A stretch of DNA of 64,000 nt from Candidatus Woesearchaeota archaeon (GCA_016184145.1 JACPDF010000022.1:1542-65541), one strand, 5' to 3'. Shown: positions 3,994 to 47,325, numbered from the stretch's first letter. Notes: generated by a model from the sequence alone, not told the origin. Translations and numbers: made by a program.

Positions 3994-4413
3994 ATGGAAT
4001 ACTCTTTCAATTGTTATGGGCATAAGAATATAACGGCTAAACACAAAACTACTTTGGAGTTTACTAAAGATAAAGATATGAGTTTAAAAGGGGATTGCAT
4101 TATTGGGGCTGGGGCTGATTTTAAGTTAAGCGAAATCAAGCAATTTATTAAAAGCTCAAACAATAAAAATATAGCAATAACTATGCAAACAATGTCAAAA
4201 AACAAAAAAATACAGGATAAAATAATAGCTGAGATTAACCCGGGTTTTAGCAGCAATAAAGAGATGGTAATCAGAAAAACAGATTTTATTTCTGAAAGGA
4301 CTTTTGCAATAAAAGCAAGTAAGGTAGCTTTTGAATTGGACAGGGACTTGATTGGGTTTTTAAAAGAAGAAAAGAGCAAAATTAAGGTTATTATTAAGGG
4401 CTATTCAAGCTGA
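3994..4413 (+). CDS. Hypothetical protein, DUF371-like (archaeal)
   Basis: N-terminal pattern CYGHKNITAKHKTTLEFTKD...GDCIIG resembles the archaeal DUF371 family from memory; no search was run. Low GC with AAA-rich codons, similar to the downstream island. Confidence 0.4.
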   Translation: MEYSFNCYGHKNITAKHKTTLEFTKDKDMSLKGDCIIGAGADFKLSEIKQFIKSSNNKNIAITMQTMSKNKKIQDKIIAEINPGFSSNKEMVIRKTDFISERTFAIKASKVAFELDRDLIGFLKEEKSKIKVIIKGYSS

Positions 4414-4583
4414 TGTTTAATTCTCAAAGCTAAAATGTTTTTTATATATTTTATATAAACCGTTAAGTAGCGAAAACAGATAGTTTTTTAAATTAATAAA
4501 GCTTAACTATAGCCAAACAAAGGGGTGTTCTTTAAAAGTTTGAGTTAAAGCAGATAGATGGAAGACTGGGGGGTATCTAAATA

Positions 4584-26743: not shown

Positions 26744-27346
26744 TTATATTTTTATTATCTTCCCGTAAGGCCCCGGATTTACAATTAAAGTTTTCTTCAG
26801 ATTATCTTTTTTGTTGAAATTCTCATGCAGATGCCCGCAAATATACAAATCTACCTTATTTTTTGCTATGAAATCCCTATAGGTTTTGTTGCCGCAATGC
26901 TCTCCAACTATTAAATCCACTTTTGTTCCGTAAGGAGGCGCATGGGTTATGAAGACTATTTTTTTATCGTAGTTTTTTTTGATGATTTTTCTGAATTTTC
27001 TGCCGGTTAGGTAAAAGCGCGGCTCCCTCAAAGAAAAACCTCCGCCGCCATAGCCCAAAAAGAGGCATTCATCATATTTATAAAAATTTTTATGGATAAA
27101 AACCAGATTATTGTATTCTTTGCATATTCTTCTCGTCAATGCTTCTGTTTCATGGTTCCCGTGTATTAACAGGATTTTTTTCTTTAGTTTGCTTAATTTG
27201 CTCAATACAATATCGAGACCCTGCTCAAATATTGTCAAATCCCCTGCGCAAACCAACAAGTCAGGGTTTTCCATCTTTATTTTCGACTTTATTTTATTTA
27301 ATGCTATGCTTGATAGATGAATATCTGTAAAGGCAAGGATTTTCAT
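26744..27346 (-). CDS. Calcineurin-like metallophosphoesterase
   Basis: Motifs ILAFTDIHL, CAGDL and LIHGNHE. Confidence 0.8.
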   Translation of the reverse strand: MKILAFTDIHLSSIALNKIKSKIKMENPDLLVCAGDLTIFEQGLDIVLSKLSKLKKKILLIHGNHETEALTRRICKEYNNLVFIHKNFYKYDECLFLGYGGGGFSLREPRFYLTGRKFRKIIKKNYDKKIVFITHAPPYGTKVDLIVGEHCGNKTYRDFIAKNKVDLYICGHLHENFNKKDNLKKTLIVNPGPYGKIIKI

Positions 27347-27391
27347 TTTGGTTTTATGTTTTAAAGTATTTTATAAATTTATTTAATTTTA

Positions 27392-27556
27392 GGGCTTTGC
27401 ACAAAAACTACGCTTCGCTTCGGGTTAGCAGCTTCAAATCTTTAATGTTCAAATTTAAGGCTGACATTTCCCGTATGGAGCATCCCCTTTGTCAGCTTAA
27501 TGTTATATTAAAAGAGATTTGACCTTAAGGCTGCTAACCACTTTTTGTGCAAAGCC
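27392..27556. mobile_element. MITE-like element copy A (165 nt, terminal inverted repeats gggctttgcacaaaaa / tttttgtgcaaagcc with a nested inverted repeat)
   Basis: Perfect 15-16 nt terminal inverted repeats. The conserved core gacatttcccgtatggagcatcccctttgtca is shared with copy B. Confidence 0.65.
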
Positions 27557-27561
27557 TGATT

Positions 27562-28794
27562 TTAGGAAATGTTATAGTAGTCTTCCAGAACAACCTTATC
27601 AACATTCTCAACATCCTTAACAATATAGAGCTTTCCATTCCCTAACTCTATTATTTTTTCTGCGAGCTTTTTTCCTTTCTCGCCCAGATTTATTCCGATT
27701 AAAGAGATGGTTATGCCTTTGTTTCTTGCTATTGAGACCTCTTTTAACGTGTCTTTTTCCGGCTCCTCTCCAAGAGTGGGCATAGCATCTGTTATCAGGA
27801 TCAGGTGTTTGGTTACATTGCCATGCGGAAACAATTCTATTGCTTTTTTCAACGTGGCTTTAAAGTCTGTCTGCCTTGAAGCTCTGGCAACTGCTATATT
27901 CCTCAGCAGGAATGTAAAATCACTTGTAGGCTCTATTGTCGTCTTGATTTCAGAGCCGAAAACTATTAAGCCTACTTTATCTTTTTCATGTATTGCTTTG
28001 TAAGCTAACGCAATTCCTGCTCTCTTGCACGCATCCATCTTGTTCCCTTTCATGCTCCCGGATGCATCCAAAGCGTAGATTATGTAATTTTGACCGCGGC
28101 TTTGCCTTTCAAATACCTGCAGGTCTTTTTGATCGAGAGCCTTATGGCCTCTTCTTATTGCGAGTTTGGATGAGCGCTTTATTGAGATATCCCTGTATCT
28201 ATCCCCTTTTTTGTAAGCCCTTGAAGATTCCTTGCTGCCATAGATAGATGCCTGCTTGTGCATTTTTTCCCCTAAAATTCCTTTAGGGGTTATTTTGTCT
28301 AACTCTTCAAAATACATGACTAGGGATGCCAATTCAAAGCCTTTCTCGCTTATATTTGAATCAGAATCAAGAAAACCCTCATCTCTCAGGCTTTCTATGT
28401 TTTTTTCAATCCTGAACCTTAGTTCTTTCCTAAATTCCGGAATGTTTATGTTTTTCCTTATGTAGTCTGGATCATAGCCTGTGGCCAACTTCAATAAAGA
28501 AGGGCCATAGATATTATGTGCGATGCTGTAGTTTTTAACAAGCTGCTGGTACATTAGCTCAGGGGCAAATGACTGCAGGCCCTGGTTTATCGAATCAGCA
28601 ATTAGCTTGCCCTTCTCTATGGTTTCCTTGTCATTCTCCAGGACAGAGCGCATTAACTTATCCTCTGCCTTTTGCGCAGAAAGATTTCCGGTTAATTCCT
28701 GTATTTCCTCTTTTTCATCAACATGTTGCCGGCTGTCAAAGTAAATCACCTTTTTTTTCCTCAAGAACTTCAGAATCAATAATGTTTTTCTCAA
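27562..28794 (-). CDS. von Willebrand factor type A domain protein
   Basis: MIDAS motif YALDASGSMKG followed by ...LITDAMPT. The annotated start overlaps the upstream MoxR gene by 59 nt; the true start may be a later Met (e.g. MRSV). Confidence 0.75.
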   Translation of the reverse strand: MRKTLLILKFLRKKKVIYFDSRQHVDEKEEIQELTGNLSAQKAEDKLMRSVLENDKETIEKGKLIADSINQGLQSFAPELMYQQLVKNYSIAHNIYGPSLLKLATGYDPDYIRKNINIPEFRKELRFRIEKNIESLRDEGFLDSDSNISEKGFELASLVMYFEELDKITPKGILGEKMHKQASIYGSKESSRAYKKGDRYRDISIKRSSKLAIRRGHKALDQKDLQVFERQSRGQNYIIYALDASGSMKGNKMDACKRAGIALAYKAIHEKDKVGLIVFGSEIKTTIEPTSDFTFLLRNIAVARASRQTDFKATLKKAIELFPHGNVTKHLILITDAMPTLGEEPEKDTLKEVSIARNKGITISLIGINLGEKGKKLAEKIIELGNGKLYIVKDVENVDKVVLEDYYNIS

Positions 28795-29665
28795 ACTGGT
28801 GCTGTACGTATTCTTCCGGGCTTTGTAGGTATTTTACAGACGGCTTCAGCCTTATCCTGTGCGCCAAAACAGAAACAACTGATTCTTCTATGTCATTAAA
28901 ATTCACTGATTTTCTTCCATGCAATAGGGCATTTGATTGGGACCTTTCGTACAACCCTAAAGATGCCCTTACAGAAGGCTTTTTTTCCAGATTCTTGTCT
29001 TCCCTCAATAATCTTACAAAATAAACCATTAATTCGAGCAATTTATTGCCAATGAATATACCATCAATTTTTTTGCCTTTTTCCACTACAATCTCTTTTT
29101 CTATGCCGATGTTTTCAGGATAATGCATGTAGATGAAATCAAATCTGTCAACTAAAACATCCGAGAGTTTTTCTGTTGATGTGTCTTCCGGATTCATTGT
29201 GCCAATAAAAATAAAATCAATTTCAAAATCAACATCATAGCTGCCAATGGTTGCTTCTTTTTCTTCCAAAACCTGCAATAAAGCGTTTTGGACTTTTTCT
29301 GGGCACCTGTTAAGCTCGTCAAAGAACAAAATTCCCTTGTCTGCCTTGAAAATCTTTCCTTTTGTAAATGCTTCTATGCTTAATGGGCCGAATTTAAGCG
29401 CCTTTACCGGATCTATGTCTCCAAGAAGGTCTTCTACAGTGAGGTCTGGAGAGCCCTGGACACGGACAAAAGGATTATTTTTGCCAAGAAGCTTTGCAAT
29501 ATTCTTTGCTAAAGTGGTTTTTCCTATTCCTGGAGGACCTACAAAGATTATATGCCTGTCTGCCAGCAAGGCTGATTTTACAGCCGACTTTACCTTATCC
29601 TGGCCAATAATGTCTGTGAAAGGGTCATTTTCCAGCAACCTTTTTTGCAGTTCTTTGTTTGCCAT
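28736..29665 (-). CDS. MoxR/ChlI-family AAA+ ATPase
   Basis: Walker A FVGPPGIGKTTLAK, Walker B FFDELNR, sensor region; about 309 aa. The pairing with a vWA protein is the classical MoxR-vWA arrangement. Confidence 0.8.
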   Translation of the reverse strand: MANKELQKRLLENDPFTDIIGQDKVKSAVKSALLADRHIIFVGPPGIGKTTLAKNIAKLLGKNNPFVRVQGSPDLTVEDLLGDIDPVKALKFGPLSIEAFTKGKIFKADKGILFFDELNRCPEKVQNALLQVLEEKEATIGSYDVDFEIDFIFIGTMNPEDTSTEKLSDVLVDRFDFIYMHYPENIGIEKEIVVEKGKKIDGIFIGNKLLELMVYFVRLLREDKNLEKKPSVRASLGLYERSQSNALLHGRKSVNFNDIEESVVSVLAHRIRLKPSVKYLQSPEEYVQHQFEKNIIDSEVLEEKKGDLL

Positions 29666-29735
29666 AGCATGTAATTAATATATAGCCAAAACTTAAGGGT
29701 AAGGCTTATTATTTTAAAAAGGTTGGGATTTGTCA

Positions 29736-29900
29736 GAGGTTGGTGCGAAATTCTCGCTTTGCTCGGGTTGCCATCAGTTCGCACTTAATGTTATTTGTTA
29801 TATTGACATCTCCCGTAGGGAGAGCATCCCCTCTGTCAATGTGCTTTCATTTTTAAGGGTGCTCACAAATTGATGGCAACCCTCATTTCGCACCAACCTC
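29736..29900. mobile_element. MITE-like element copy B (165 nt, terminal inverted repeats gaggttggtgcgaaat / atttcgcaccaacctc)
   Basis: Same length and architecture as copy A, with the same conserved core (gacatctcccgtagggagagcatcccctctgtca) in the same orientation. Confidence 0.65.
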
Positions 29901-29913
29901 GATTTGTCAAGAA

Positions 29914-31122
29914 CTATTTTCTACTAGTATATGCTGCATGCCTTCTTACCATGTACTTGAATACTATTGGGGCTAAGAAAGTGCTTATCATTGCGACTGT
30001 TATTATTATTGTAAAGATTGAAACTGTAATGATGCCGCTTTGCAAGGCTAAAGTGGCAATTACAAGCTCTGTATCCCCTTTAGGCAAAACACCCCAGCCA
30101 ACAATTAACCCCTCATTGAAAGAGCCCTTGCTCAGCATTACGCCAATTATAGTTCCAGCTAAAGTTCCAATGATATCAATGAAAGCAAATGTTCCAACTA
30201 GAAGCAAATTTGAGGATAAGGAAAATAAGTCCGTCTGCAAGCCAACGCTAACAAAAAATATGGGTATTAGGAATCCAAATGATACTATATGCAATGAATG
30301 CGAAAGCTCGTTTTTTCTCCATGGCTTCCTGTCTGCACCAGTAAGCAAGGTCTGCCTTACAAGAGCTCCTGCAATTAACGAGCCTATCAATGAGCCTATC
30401 CCTAATAACTCTGAGATGTATGCAACTGCAAGGACAATTATCAAAGCCCCCATGAATAAGGAAGCCTGTGATTTTTCTCTTTCGAATATCTTCAATGCAA
30501 AGGGAATAAGCGAGACTCGCAAGAGTATTACTAAAGCTACAAAAAATAGTATATTTATTGCCAATACTGTAAAGTCAGGTGTATCTGCAGTTGCTGAATG
30601 GAATAAAATCAAAACCGAGCTTATAAGGAGCAGCTCAAAAACATCATCAACGGTGCCGGATGCTATGATCAAATTTCCGATTTTGCTTTTTAGCAGCCTG
30701 ACTTCTTCAAGAATATCAAGGGAAATTGCCTGAGAACTGACTGAAACAGAGATACCCATAACAATTGATACTAAATTGTCAAAACCAAATAAAAATTTTG
30801 CAGCAAGAAAGCCAAAAGCAAATGGGATTAAGGTATTAAAAATCGCAATGTATGATGTTTCTTTCAGATTTTTTCTAAACTCCTTCAAATTAAGCTCCAA
30901 TCCAATAAAAAAGAACAGCAAAATAATGCCTATATTGGCCAAAAAGGAAAAAGATAAAGAAATGTCTTCTGTAAATAACATGCTTTTGAAAAGAGGTATG
31001 CCGAGGATTGCACCAGCCAAGATTTGCCCTATAACCCTTGGCAGCTTGAAATAGCGGAATATCTCTGATAAGATATAGGCAAGAACTAAAGCTATTAAAA
31101 TAACTAGCAAAACATTGCTCAT
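29914..31122 (-). CDS. Cation:proton antiporter (CPA2/KefB-like Na+/H+ exchanger)
   Basis: About 12 TM helices and the N-terminus LPRVIGQILAGAILGIP typical of Kef/NhaP-type exchangers. The antisense 29870..30733 ORF is rejected. Confidence 0.8.
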   Translation of the reverse strand: MSNVLLVILIALVLAYILSEIFRYFKLPRVIGQILAGAILGIPLFKSMLFTEDISLSFSFLANIGIILLFFFIGLELNLKEFRKNLKETSYIAIFNTLIPFAFGFLAAKFLFGFDNLVSIVMGISVSVSSQAISLDILEEVRLLKSKIGNLIIASGTVDDVFELLLISSVLILFHSATADTPDFTVLAINILFFVALVILLRVSLIPFALKIFEREKSQASLFMGALIIVLAVAYISELLGIGSLIGSLIAGALVRQTLLTGADRKPWRKNELSHSLHIVSFGFLIPIFFVSVGLQTDLFSLSSNLLLVGTFAFIDIIGTLAGTIIGVMLSKGSFNEGLIVGWGVLPKGDTELVIATLALQSGIITVSIFTIIITVAMISTFLAPIVFKYMVRRHAAYTSRK

Positions 31123-31168
31123 AAAGGTTCAATAGAAAATGAGGTTTATATAGTTTATGATTATTAAA

Positions 31169-31768
31169 TTAGGCTCTAAATTTGCCTTCCATAATTATTT
31201 CCTTTAAAGGCTTTCTTTGAGAAGGTATTTCCCTTTCCTGCAATTCTTGAGGCAAATCGGATTTTTTCCCCCTTTTTCCAATAGCTGCCATTGCCTCGAC
31301 ATTATAGACTTCTGGAATTCCCAGAGCTTTTTTTGCCTTTTCATAATCAAATCCCTGCATTCCATGTATGACATAACCTCTTCTTGCTGCTTCCAAAGCC
31401 ATGTTTTCCCAGGCAGCCCCTGCGTCAAAGCTGTGGGTTATTGATGGCTGGCCATTATGGTCAAAGGTTTTCTTGGATATAATAACAACCAAAACAGCGG
31501 CATTTTTTGTCCAGCTTTGGTTAAACTCCACCATTAAATTAAATAATCTATCCCAGTGTTCTGTATTTCTTTTTGCGTAAATAAAGCGCCATGGCTGGTT
31601 GTTGTAAGAAGAAGGCGCCCATCTTGCAGCTTCAAAAATAGCCATTAGCTCCCGCTCGTCAATTTCCGCCCCAGTCATTGCCCTCGGAGACCACCTGTTT
31701 AATATCAAAGGGCTTATATCGTAATCTGATTTTCTATGTTGCTTTATTTCATTTGAAAGCTTTTCCAT
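31169..31768 (-). CDS. Nitroreductase family protein
   Basis: RWSPRAM...FEAARWAPSSYNNQPWRF pattern. Confidence 0.8.
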   Translation of the reverse strand: MEKLSNEIKQHRKSDYDISPLILNRWSPRAMTGAEIDERELMAIFEAARWAPSSYNNQPWRFIYAKRNTEHWDRLFNLMVEFNQSWTKNAAVLVVIISKKTFDHNGQPSITHSFDAGAAWENMALEAARRGYVIHGMQGFDYEKAKKALGIPEVYNVEAMAAIGKRGKKSDLPQELQEREIPSQRKPLKEIIMEGKFRA

Positions 31769-40549: not shown

Positions 40550-40775
40550 AATTTTTTAGAATGGAATTAGGTTTAAAAAGGTTGTGGAAAACTCTTTTGA
40601 GTTTTCGCAACCTCGAAAATCACGAGAAAAGCGAAGCTTTTCTGTGACACAACAAAATCCAAAGGATTTTGTGTGCAGGAAATTCAAAAGGAATTTCCAC
40701 GCACAGAAAATTTTCAATTTTCTTGTGTCTCTGATTTTCGGTTGGTTTTTAAAAATTCGGCTTTGAATGCTTAGC

Positions 40776-45940: not shown

Positions 45941-47275
45941 ATGCGGATGATTGAAATTTATGCAGTAGGCGGCTATAATGAAATAGGAAAGAACTGCACT
46001 GCAATCAAGGTTGATGATGAGGTTGTTATTATTGACTTGGGCATCCATCTGGAAAGCTACATCAAGCTTACAGAGGATGAGGACATTGTAAATATAAACC
46101 CGGAGAAGCTAATGAAAGTAGGGGCAATCCCGGATATTTCTATCCTGAACAAAATTATGGATAAGGTAAAGGCAGTCATAATAAGCCATGCCCATCTTGA
46201 CCATTTAGGAGCTGTTCCGTATCTTGCAGACAAGTTTGATGCTCCGATAATAGGGACTCCTTTTACAATTGAAGTTATAAGAGCCATATTAAGGGATGAT
46301 AAGATAAGCCTAAAGAATAAAATAATAACCCTAAACTCAAATTCTTCCTATGACATCTCCAAGAACATAAAAGTGGAATTTATACACATTACCCATTCCA
46401 CGCCGCAAACAGCCTTGGTGGCAATACATACAAAATACGGGACAATACTTTATGCCAACGATTTTAAGCTGGACATGCATCCTGTCCTTGGAAAAAAGCC
46501 GAATTTCAAGAGGCTGCAGGAGCTTGGAAAGGAGAATGTTATTGCCTTAATAGTCGAGTCAACTTACGCAAAAGACGCAAAAAAGATGCCTTCTGAAAGC
46601 GTTGCAAAAGAGATGTTGAGGGAGGCTATGCTGGAGACAGAAAACAAGAACAACATAATATTAGTAACTACATTTTCATCGCATATAGCAAGGCTAAAGT
46701 CAGTAATAGAGTTTGGGAAAAAGCTCAACAGGAAAGTTATTTTCATGGGAAGGTCGCTGGCAAAGTATGCAAAGGCTGCTGAAAATGTGGGTTTAGTGAA
46801 TTTCTCAAAAGATGTGGAGATGGTTAAGTACGGAAAGCAGATAAAAAAAAAGCTTAAAAAGATTGAGAAGGAAAGGGAAAAGTATGTCCTGGCTGTTACC
46901 GGGCATCAAGGAGAGCATAAATCTGTACTGTACAGGATGATGAGGGGCGAGCTTGGATTTAGGCTGCATCCAGAGGATAACGTGATATTCTCATGCAAAG
47001 TGATCCCAACACCTACAAACATAGCAAACAGGGAAGCGCTTGAAAATGAGCTAAGGCAGCTTGGCATAAGGGTTTTTAGGGATGTGCACCAGTCAGGGCA
47101 TGCTGCAAGAGAGGACTTGAGGGATTTCATAGGGCTCGTAAAGCCAAAGAAAGTGATTCCTGCGCATGGGAATAAGGAGATGAAAGAGGCCCTGGCAGAT
47201 CTTGCAACTGAGATGGGCTATAAAATGGAAAAGAGCATATTCCTGGTAAAAGACGGGCATAAGGTTGCTATATAA
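45941..47275 (+). CDS. rnj: Ribonuclease J (metallo-beta-lactamase / beta-CASP family)
   Basis: HxHxDH motif IISHAHLDHLGAVPY, beta-CASP motifs, and the C-terminal HQSGHAARED; 444 aa. Confidence 0.8.
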   Translation: MRMIEIYAVGGYNEIGKNCTAIKVDDEVVIIDLGIHLESYIKLTEDEDIVNINPEKLMKVGAIPDISILNKIMDKVKAVIISHAHLDHLGAVPYLADKFDAPIIGTPFTIEVIRAILRDDKISLKNKIITLNSNSSYDISKNIKVEFIHITHSTPQTALVAIHTKYGTILYANDFKLDMHPVLGKKPNFKRLQELGKENVIALIVESTYAKDAKKMPSESVAKEMLREAMLETENKNNIILVTTFSSHIARLKSVIEFGKKLNRKVIFMGRSLAKYAKAAENVGLVNFSKDVEMVKYGKQIKKKLKKIEKEREKYVLAVTGHQGEHKSVLYRMMRGELGFRLHPEDNVIFSCKVIPTPTNIANREALENELRQLGIRVFRDVHQSGHAAREDLRDFIGLVKPKKVIPAHGNKEMKEALADLATEMGYKMEKSIFLVKDGHKVAI

Positions 47276-47325
47276 ACCACAAAAATTATAAATAAACGGC
47301 TATTTTTCTGCTTTGGGGGAATATT

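Follow-up and report, generated by a model that had tools for sequence, protein, structure and literature searches.

The locus described here holds a MoxR-type AAA+ ATPase gene and a gene for a vWA-domain protein, which lie between two inverted-repeat elements, A and B, within the window, meaning the whole 64-kb stretch of DNA that was analyzed (Table 1). A sits between the stop codon of the vWA gene, 5 nt away, and the promoter of a metallophosphoesterase gene, the next start codon being 46 nt away, and B sits between the stop codon of a Na+/H+ exchanger gene, 13 nt away, and the MoxR promoter, directly upstream of its BRE/TATA. In each case the element occupies a short intergenic spacer and borders, on the upstream side, the BRE/TATA promoter of the following minus-strand gene. 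The first-pass annotation had placed two such elements outside the MoxR and vWA genes, and they are indeed found there. When the boundaries are set by the flanking duplications, the start of A moves by one base, from 27392 to 27393, and the equal length of 165 nt that had been given to both elements then holds for B, while A is 164 nt long. The terminal inverted repeats of 15-16 nt are perfect and the nested repeats are present, as had been described, and so is a conserved core in the same orientation; the core is asymmetric and includes the blocks GACATYTCCCGTAKGG and GCATCCCCTYTGTCA, which are common to A and B and have exact matches nowhere else in the 64-kb window. In a pairwise alignment the two elements, lying in the same orientation, are identical at 97 of 168 columns (~58%), and their terminal repeats differ. 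They are the sole copies in the window that nhmmer detected with the profile of the family to which they belong.

Table 1. Coordinates of the elements, their flanking duplications, and the neighboring features in the window.
Feature	Position	Strand	Description
MITE copy A	27393..27556	+	164 bp; nhmmer 120 bits, E 1e-35; exact empty site in L059/L060
A, terminal inverted repeats	27393-27407; 27542-27556		GGCTTTGCACAAAAA and its complement; 15 nt, 100%
A, nested arms	27423-27437 / 27525-27539		87%
A, interior			bulge on one side, CTACGCTTCGCTTCGGG; apical core, GACATTTCCCGTATGGAGCATCCCCTTTGTCA
A, left duplication	27384..27392	.	TAATTTTAG; 9 bp
A, right duplication	27557..27565	.	TGATTTTAG; 8/9 identical to left; includes vWA stop codon 27562-27564
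MITE copy B	29736..29900	+	165 bp; nhmmer 99 bits, E 4e-29
B, terminal inverted repeats	29736-29751; 29885-29900		GAGGTTGGTGCGAAAT and its complement; 16 nt, 100%
B, nested arms	29765-29779 / 29868-29882		93%
B, interior			bulge, TCTCGCTTTGCTCGGG; apical core, GACATCTCCCGTAGGGAGAGCATCCCCTCTGTCA
B, left duplication	29727..29735	.	GATTTGTCA; perfect 9 bp; directly upstream of conserved MoxR BRE/TATA region
B, right duplication	29901..29909	.	GATTTGTCA; perfect 9 bp
MoxR-type AAA+ ATPase gene	28736..29665	-	conserved syntenic host gene; context, not cargo
vWA-domain protein gene	27562..28749	-	395-aa ATG used by relatives and gene callers; mechanical ORF to 28794
Unoccupied intergenic site	47265..47280, roughly 47272/47273	.	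filled in syntenic L020 by a degraded member, ~137 bp

A and B are each flanked by a duplication of their own. Among 24 full-length copies of the family, 16 are flanked by exact direct repeats of 8 nt or longer, compared with 5.4% of mismatched left/right flank pairs, and with the minimum length raised to 9 nt the proportions are 37.5% of the 24 copies and 2.0% of the mismatched pairs. The 9-bp repeats adjoin the GG...CC tips, as exemplified by GGAAGAGAA, GATAAGGAT, GGGCAACAA, TTAGCTTCC, TTCCTTTAG, TGAGTTTTT, and GATTTGTCA. The duplication is 9 bp long in all unambiguous copies, and a recognizable duplication is absent at some copies (L008, L026). In the relatives L059 and L060, whose vWA protein is 87% identical, the target 9-mer of A, CTAAAATCA on the gene strand, occurs once and the element is absent, making this an exact empty site: these relatives read CCTAAAATCAAATAAATTTATAAAT where the window reads CTAAAATCA, element A, and CTAAAATTAAATAAATTTATAAAA. 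The MoxR promoter, CCAACCTTTTTAAAATA on the gene strand, is likewise kept in relatives with no element beside it. Contig L001 stops precisely at 29735, a position consistent with B being still polymorphic, and a junction lacking B would consist of GATTTGTCA joined to AGAACTATT.

The bracketing of a two-gene operon by two related elements in direct orientation had suggested a composite mobilizable cassette, in which A and B would jointly act as the ends of a transposon that moves MoxR-vWA. Precedents of the Tn903 type and Acinetobacter MITE-flanked integrons can be invoked for such a unit, and mobilized cassettes flanked by MITEs are known in bacteria (reviewed in PMC10969869). Tn903 and the Acinetobacter class 1 integrons resemble the present locus in that a gene set lies between two related inverted-repeat elements, but their flanking copies are near-identical and a single duplication surrounds the whole unit, whereas here there is one duplication per copy, the outer flanks of the pair are unlike (TAATTTTAG versus GATTTGTCA), the two elements share only the ~58% identity given above with dissimilar terminal repeats, and the enclosed genes are ancestral. 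A search with the vWA protein gave 1764 matches below 1e-30, the best 120 of which were 74-100% identical and came from Woesearchaeota or Nanoarchaeota wherever named, and more than 100 vWA protein clusters were found at 75-87% identity. MoxR-vWA stands in the same syntenic block without the elements in L053, L055, L057, L059, and L061; a hypothetical gene of 197-199 aa lies directly upstream of MoxR in L053, L055, and L057, and the downstream order in L053 is metallophosphoesterase (preceded by an additional ORF of 180 aa), Taw1, a gene of 166 aa, and dUTPase. The empty site of A is exact in the closest relative, and no MoxR or vWA gene adjoins a family copy at the other element-holding loci. 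Because there is a separate duplication for each copy and the pair pre-exists in element-free relatives, the composite-cassette reading is refuted, and we leave it next to no chance of being correct. MoxR-vWA occupied the locus before either insertion, each copy in the window inserted independently, and the two genes were not carried between A and B. The elements are very probably copies of a non-autonomous MITE family that were inserted singly near promoters and took no part in MoxR-vWA transport.

The label "MITE-like" in the first-pass annotation is borne out by a multicopy family with 9-bp target-site duplications and orthologous empty sites. About 40 further copies were found in Woesearchaeota/Nanoarchaeia assemblies and metagenomes, several per genome, and define a family of ~164 bp. 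An exact-pattern scan of GTDB genomes yielded 15 loci, every one in an archaeal assembly of the Woesearchaeota/Nanoarchaeia type; four of these assemblies have the element on 2-4 contigs of one genome (the window itself holds two copies), and a scan of metagenomes yielded 25 loci, 23 of them real. In one metagenome, identical copies of 168 nt occupy two separate loci, L026 and L037. The copies measure 161-168 bp and have only trivial ORFs, the third positions of would-be codons being conserved like the remaining positions. Their ends are GG-tipped 15-bp inverted repeats with a consensus of about GGCTCWGTAGAAAAT. Nested insertions and truncated remnants occur among the family loci, and public short-read contigs end precisely at these elements. 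Since the collection scans demanded an exact match to the core, part of its seeming invariance is an artefact; among five copies selected otherwise than by the core, P2 is 76% identical, the core 62%, and helix 1 (P1) 50-57%. Copies that were not chosen via the core keep the apical hairpin, UCCC-GUA(A)-GGGA, and the bulge on one side. It had been proposed that a lack of both other copies and target-site duplications would speak against the MITE reading; copies and duplications were both found, and the reading therefore stands. According to a published survey, a Woesearchaea genome ranks with the most MITE-dense of the archaea, at 105 per Mb (PMC11602168). Two other origins were considered and rejected. 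Integron attC-like sites would have GTTRRRY/RYYYAAC core sites, to which the arms do not correspond, and the target duplications are of unrelated sequence; as for a viral, plasmid, or phage origin, the lone IMG/VR match is a GC-rich chance match, and blastn against PLSDB and a phage collection returned nothing.

A and B are each predicted to fold into a single long rod, with energies of -59.9 and -71.5 kcal/mol and z scores of -6.4 and -8.8 against dinucleotide shuffles, none of 200 shuffles folding as well as A or B, and the opposite strands of both elements fold equally well. The 37 consensus pairs are 96.4% paired, compared with 79.7% in shuffled controls and ~40% with slid partners; both-side changes are seen at 24 of these pairs, and P1 is 98.3% paired across 23 copies. 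G·U pairs take up 3 of the ~530 cells of P1 and P2, and mismatches 9, proportions that selection on an RNA would not be expected to leave. The strand test, in which G·U pairs are set against A·C mismatches, rests on small numbers and gives an RNA strand no support. Strong covariation with almost no G·U argues for palindromy at the DNA level rather than for an RNA gene, and the whole-length hairpin is best read in this way. Independently transcribed non-coding RNA genes, with flanking repeats that are coincidental, might account for the covariation and for the TATA-like box that most copies have ~18 nt beyond one of their ends. The TATA boxes, however, are features of the flanking genes, located beyond the duplications, and the same explanation is confronted with 9-bp duplications far above controls, exact empty sites, nested insertions, truncated remnants, and the lack of a G·U signature and of an Rfam match, which make it extremely unlikely. 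A known RNA family or a tRNA-like gene was rejected because Rfam gave no match in the window or in eight related loci at the gathering threshold, and none over 27300-30000 at E values up to 10, and because ARAGORN found no tRNA. A Y-RNA/Ro60-like pairing with the vWA protein was also discarded: the protein has no TROVE domain, only vWA and DUF58 models matching, and there is no conserved neighborhood, the element lying beside vWA/MoxR nowhere else.

As a source of the mobilizing activity, the IS903 group of the IS5 family appears to fit the tips and the 9-bp duplication best. The inverted repeat of IS903, GGCTTTGTTGAATAAATC, was verified and adjoins an IS5-family transposase, and its first 12 nt (GGCTTTGTTGAA) recur unchanged in the copies L005 and L053 and are matched in part by other copies. 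IS903B is reported to make 9-bp direct target repeats (PMC9769513); this value is taken from the literature because the one IS903 copy inspected for it, on plasmid pLVPK, has no duplication. Prokaryotic MITEs derived from DDE insertion sequences, in particular from IS903-group members of the IS5 family, resemble the present family in being small (~164 bp), non-coding, multicopy, and intergenic, in their GG(C)-tipped terminal repeats and 9-bp target duplication, in their nested and clustered insertions, and in forming a stable stem-loop when single-stranded. The present family differs from them in its DPANN hosts, its very diverse terminal repeats, its full-length covarying palindrome with conserved asymmetric loops, and its near-fixed TATA distance, and in that no cognate transposase gene was found in ~400 kb of loci and the window. 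The IS6 family is the other candidate. Its elements are abundant in archaea, with ends of the form GG...cTGTt...caaa and duplications of 8 bp (PMC7986276), and repeats of the GGCTCTGTTGAAAAT type match this end consensus well in their GG tips, cTGTt, and caaa motifs, which they share with IS6 (IS26) ends and the rare MITEs of that family. The 8-bp duplication of IS6 is nevertheless at odds with the 9 bp seen in all unambiguous copies. Because the IS6 ends fit about as well as those of IS903, it is chiefly the 9-bp length of the duplication on which the family assignment rests. The surroundings of the copies yielded no transposase of any type, and in ~400 kb of loci plus the window tblastn gave nothing significant with either the IS903 transposase or a sequence of the IS26 transposase (Tnp26). 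A weight-matrix scan of the collected loci for paired ends 0.7-2.5 kb apart produced no convincing pair, and the recurrent neighboring ORFs are housekeeping ones, namely short-chain dehydrogenases and subunits of pyruvate:ferredoxin oxidoreductase.

Family membership, the multicopy distribution, the duplications, the empty sites, the synteny, and the promoter-proximal positions are all directly established by these comparisons, and the movement of the elements may be pictured as follows. A DDE-type transposase supplied in trans would bind both ends and excise or copy the element, which would then be joined to a target opened by two cuts 9 bp apart, the repair of this stagger giving the 9-bp direct repeats. 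The covariation of the arms could arise because both ends must fit one transposase, together with a template-switch "correction" of imperfect inverted repeats. The terminal repeats diverge between copies (in the window, GGCTTTGCACAAAAA versus GAGGTTGGTGCGAAAT) beyond the usual tolerance of one transposase. The interior, too, is palindromic and covarying, and transposase binding alone is insufficient as an explanation of this. One could imagine that the elements are not classical DDE-dependent MITEs but are retroposed or structure-specific, moving through an RNA or a single-stranded hairpin intermediate recognized by its shape and not by the sequence of its ends. The wide variation of the terminal repeats between copies despite 98% complementarity within a copy, the conservation of the entire element as a rod with asymmetric loops, and the failure to find a matching transposase in ~400 kb of loci and the window would agree with such a route. 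Retroposition, however, generates duplications of variable length and HUH/Y1 systems generate none, whereas a fixed 9-bp duplication is a hallmark of staggered DDE cleavage; moreover, the tips share a GG...TG...AAA consensus with IS903 and IS6 ends, and the few ORFs scanned near the copies included neither a reverse transcriptase nor an HUH gene. We therefore regard a shape-recognized intermediate as very unlikely and retain the DDE-dependent MITE as the preferred reading.

A TATA-like hexamer is centered 15-24 nt from one end in 19 of 25 copies, compared with 15% of random intergenic sites. The near-constant spacing of ~18 nt between the insertion and the TATA-like box was unexpected. Measured from the start codons of the neighboring genes, the TATA boxes are ~25-30 nt upstream, beyond the duplications, and they are therefore a property of those genes. 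As the element ends ~18 nt from the center of the TATA box, the 9-bp target lies directly upstream of the BRE. Integration guided by promoters or transcription factors is known for Ty3 and the Dictyostelium TRE at Pol III genes, and IS5 is found upstream of some Escherichia coli promoters. These systems likewise show a narrow set distance upstream of a core promoter element, but they belong to another transposon class and another domain of life, and in the tiny spacers of the present hosts targeting is inseparable from selection. It is conceivable, although quite unlikely in our estimation, that insertion is guided to the upstream edge of the archaeal core promoter, through DNA bent by TBP/TFB or by a transposase that reads the whole covarying hairpin instead of a set end sequence, and that the copies are then retained as insulators or terminators amid the tightly packed genes of these reduced genomes.

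Another possibility, compatible with the MITE reading, is that the elements are or became functional for the host as bidirectional terminators, insulators, or sources of small hairpin RNAs, with retention on the promoter side being selected. Transcripts of either strand would carry a very stable hairpin between an A-run and a U-run, and bacterial MITE transcripts have been described as terminator-like or sRNA-producing hairpins (PMC10969869). The closeness of A and B to the vWA and exchanger stop codons and to the MoxR BRE/TATA, the frequency of the TATA-like hexamer near one end, and the persistence of the bulge and apical hairpin in copies not selected by the core would also agree with a host role. 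Against it, the long helices are nearly devoid of G·U pairs, close relatives work without elements at the same sites, there is no clear orientation bias (tandem contexts stand at roughly 5 to 1 in a small sample), and there is no Rfam family, so that a host function seems possible but on the whole unlikely. Among the bacterial MITEs that are palindromic over their whole length and act in RNA, Correia/NEMIS, ERIC, RUP/BOX/SPRITE, and QMITE elements are alike in size, terminal repeats, short duplications, and intergenic location, and their transcripts would form long hairpins able to terminate or stabilize mRNAs (PMC10969869); the present family differs in its unrelated sequence and archaeal host. 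The terminator or small-RNA alternative offered in the first-pass annotation is thus acceptable as a possible side effect of the hairpin, but not as the defining feature of the elements.

The present analysis removes a false lead, in that MoxR-vWA is an ordinary conserved host operon. What appears to be a previously uncurated MITE family is now bounded by its GG...CC tips, its 9-bp duplication, and its length of ~164 bp, and this should aid the annotation and assembly of Woesearchaeota genomes. The family also provides a tractable case for studying the DNA-level co-evolution of inverted-repeat arms and, given the tiny spacers, for asking whether archaeal transposition is targeted to the BRE/TATA edge or whether copies merely survive there. 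If the guided-insertion reading were true, the family would represent a promoter-targeted, shape-recognized mobile element in DPANN archaea.

A and B, the two hairpin elements on either side of the MoxR and vWA genes, are upheld as the MITE-like elements (miniature inverted-repeat transposable elements) that the first-pass annotation had seen in them, on the grounds of dispersed copies, 9-bp duplications and empty sites, and the element has every structural feature by which prokaryotic MITEs are recognized (PMC10969869). The terminal inverted repeats are perfect in both copies, with arms of 15 nt and 16 nt, a second, inner arm pair is present in each, and the two lie in the same orientation with a common core and 97 of 168 alignment columns identical; the equal length of 165 nt assigned to them holds for B and is lost for A once the duplications set the boundaries. 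The blocks around GACATYTCCCGTAKGG...GCATCCCCTYTGTCA that A and B have in common find exact matches at no other place in the window, and a profile search of the window returned A and B as the only family copies. On folding, each forms one long rod (z-scores of -6.4 and -8.8, respectively, against shuffled controls), and the opposite strands fold equally stably. Both copies are also mosaics: A has its interior in common with the copy at database locus L027 and entirely different terminal repeats, and B has its interior in common with those at L021, L034 and L038 and tips like those of L016, which suggests recombination between subfamilies or rapid turnover of the tips.

Features of the window and of compared loci (L numbers)
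Feature	Locus	Coordinates	Detail
Element A	window	27393-27556	164 nt; boundaries set by flanking duplications; duplication TAATTTTAG/TGATTTTAG
Element B	window	29736-29900	165 nt; boundaries set by flanking duplications; duplication GATTTGTCA
TATA-like box by A	window	27366-27377	
TATA-like box by B	window	29708-29719	
MoxR-type AAA+ ATPase gene	window	between A and B	minus strand
vWA protein gene	window	between A and B	minus strand
Outer neighbours of the A/B pair	window		Na+/H+ exchanger; metallophosphoesterase
Nitroreductase and Na+/H+ exchanger genes	window	29914-31768	
Four-hairpin intergenic structure	window	40608-40745	
Duplication of copy	L004		GGAAGAGAA
Duplication of copy	L021		TTCCTTTAG
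Duplication of copy	L028		TGAGTTTTT
Duplication of copy	L029		GATAAGGAT
Duplication of copy	L036		GGGCAACAA
Duplication of copy	L038		TTAGCTTCC
Copy from profile search	L030	521-684	
Copy from profile search	L020	2201-2326	
Copy from profile search	L053	791-956	
Three elements back to back	L026	761-1186	
First element	L026	761-930	family copy
Second element	L026	937-1074	138 bp
Third element	L026	from ~1084	start of another copy
238-nt variant	L022 (= L007)	4326-4563	
238-nt variant	L009	5300-5538	
Copy within a copy	L030	380-720	

When the shared core was used as a pattern against one genome per GTDB species, 15 loci were found, all in archaeal MAGs whose labels are almost without exception Woesearchaeota, Nanoarchaeota or Nanoarchaeia and of which one can contribute as many as four contigs, and a metagenome scan added 25 loci, two of which are GC-rich chance matches; the search for copies elsewhere thus revealed a dispersed family. 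It is absent from PLSDB and a phage collection, and a viral copy was dismissed as the sole viral match is a chance one. No MoxR or vWA homologue was found near the copies at the 15 genome loci, for each of which 8 kb was fetched, which means that the element has no fixed link to the MoxR-vWA operon. A profile search recovered three copies not chosen via the core (L030, L020 and L053).

Some loci hold compound arrangements. The second of the three inverted-repeat elements in L026 has family-type tips GGCTTTATTGCAAGT, an unrelated interior and its own 9-bp duplication, GAAAAATTG. The 238-nt variants, which come from two different genomes, have 74 nt inserted at one and the same position, between the P2 arm (P1 and P2 being the long helices) and the helix that follows it, and the insert has TGTCA...TGACA inverted ends of its own. 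In L030, a family copy lies within another whose outer arms differ (GCACGGCGGGAGTAATT / AATTACTCCCTCCGTGC); together with L033 and L037, this locus represents nested insertion and copies whose outer stem is an alternative one.

The flanks, read copy by copy, carry direct repeats right next to the GG...CC tips; wherever their length was unambiguous, it was 9 bp. When the flank windows on the left and right were compared blind, exact repeats of 8 nt or longer turned up in 16 of 24 full-length copies but in only 5.4% of mismatched flank pairs, and those of 9 nt or longer in 37.5% and 2.0%, respectively; the 16 include a few chance repeats that are off-register, and about 13 directly adjoin the tips.

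The closest relative, L059/L060, whose vWA protein is 87% identical, provides an exact empty site for A: between vWA and the metallophosphoesterase gene it reads ...CCTAAAATCAAATAAATTTATAAAT... without an element, while the same spacer of the window, on the gene strand, reads CTAAAATCA-[A]-CTAAAATTA-AATAAATTTATAAAA. The 9-mer occurs once in the empty site and twice around A; the vWA stop codon lies within it and was left intact by the duplication. The promoter block CCAACCTTTTTAAAATA upstream of MoxR, directly adjoined in the window by B and its duplication, is also kept in the relatives without an element, and no family member lies beside their syntenic MoxR-vWA genes. Conversely, the window lacks an element at ~47272, the site of a degraded copy in the syntenic locus L020. 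The proposal that A, MoxR-vWA and B form a composite mobilisable unit is refuted because the two copies are flanked by separate duplications and the pair's outer flanks are unmatched, because A and B are only ~58% identical with different terminal repeats, and because the MoxR and vWA genes are ancestral at the locus.

In the relatives L053, L055 and L057, a 197-199-aa hypothetical gene is followed by MoxR, and L053 continues in the window's order (vWA, metallophosphoesterase, Taw1, a 166-aa gene, dUTPase) with one additional 180-aa ORF after vWA. The nitroreductase and exchanger genes, which in the window separate the conserved 197-aa hypothetical gene from MoxR, are extra relative to these three loci; L061 has a nitroreductase at the same place and L053 an exchanger farther upstream, so that the insertion is a local gene-order difference. 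The vWA protein is strongly conserved: its search gave 1764 matches below 1e-30, the best 120 at 74-100% identity. Around the start of the vWA gene (28736-28794), the mechanically called ORF has 410 aa and a TTG start, while all relatives have 395 aa and an ATG start, and the true start is probably at 28749, with a 14-nt overlap with the MoxR end. The nearby Taw1-type wyosine radical-SAM gene indicates an archaeal host, and homologues bear the names Woesearchaeota or Nanoarchaeota.

In an alignment of 23 full-length copies, both sides changed in 24 of 37 consensus pairs, and pairing holds in 96.4% of the cells, compared with 79.7% for shuffled and ~40% for slid partners (covariation score, 0.479 versus 0.157). 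The ~530 cells of the two long helices contain only three G·U pairs and nine other mismatches, which is the pattern of true DNA inverted repeats, unlike that of most RNA helices, and this scarcity favors maintenance of the arms at the DNA level. Both tips might be constrained to fit one transposase. Template switching during replication is also known to "perfect" imperfect inverted repeats (PMC7202029) and may likewise keep the arms matched. The asymmetric parts, a one-sided bulge (CTCGCNTNCGCTCGGG) and an apical UCCC-GUA(A)-GGGA hairpin with a pyrimidine tail, are present in copies outside the pattern selection too; the near-invariance of the core is partly an ascertainment artefact of that selection, identities in five unselected copies being 62% for the core, 76% for P2 and 50-57% for P1. 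At the curated threshold, neither the window nor eight related loci matched an Rfam family, and a permissive one (E-value up to 10, 27300-30000) gave nothing on the elements; the window has no tRNA. Ro60/Y-RNA-like pairing with the vWA protein was dropped, as the protein lacks a TROVE domain. Elsewhere in the window, four adjacent hairpins sit in a closing stem (CAACC..GAAAATCA / TGATTTTCGGTTG; -53.4 kcal/mol, z-score of -6.1), with no Rfam match and a sequence unrelated to the MITE family.

Among insertion sequences, a duplication with a fixed length of 9 bp, together with inverted repeats tipped by GG, is indicative of a DDE transposase. We infer such a partner for the family, which would act in trans and cut the target with a stagger that gives the 9-bp duplication. 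The terminal repeat consensus is approximately GGCTCWGTAGAAAAT. The IS903 repeat GGCTTTGTTGAATAAATC, verified in thousands of plasmids and beside a transposase annotated as IS5-family, is identical over its first 12 nt to the repeats of L005 and L053, and IS903B target repeats are 9 bp (PMC9769513). The ends of the IS6 family, which is common in archaea, fit about as well (GG tips, cTGTt, caaa), but its duplications are 8 bp (PMC7986276) rather than 9 bp. No transposase was matched by tblastn with the IS903 transposase and a Tnp26 sequence in the fetched loci and the window, and a weight-matrix scan revealed no IS-sized pair of ends; the recurrent ORFs beside copies encode dehydrogenases and pyruvate:ferredoxin oxidoreductase subunits.

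In most copies, a neighboring gene has its start codon ~45 nt from an element end, and divergent gene pairs flank 13 of 22. In 22 of 29 cases, the nearest TATA-like hexamer has its center 15-24 nt off the element end; such a hexamer occurs on at least one side of 19 of 25 copies versus 15% of intergenic positions drawn at random from those loci (per flank, 44% versus 7.8%). Seen from the genes, which appear to be leaderless, the 9-bp target falls immediately upstream of their BRE/TATA. The copies show no clear bias in orientation relative to neighbor genes. One possibility is that this region is targeted, and another is that copies survive there in very short spacers; the same TATA spacing in several long-spacer copies (L005, L034, L036 and L038) leans toward targeting.

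Independent public short-read contigs (Logan), drawn from the same samples or related ones, are broken at the elements: L001 corresponds exactly to 27527-29735 and stops at the base just before B, the beginning of L044 coincides with the right end of A (27556), and L043 terminates within B (29867). These ends are consistent with repeat-induced assembly breaks, and B is possibly present in some members of a mixed population and absent from others. In a large survey, a Woesearchaea genome was already reported to carry MITEs at very high density (PMC11602168); the features of the present family for specialists are its fixed promoter spacing and a palindrome that covaries over its whole length with very diverse tips.
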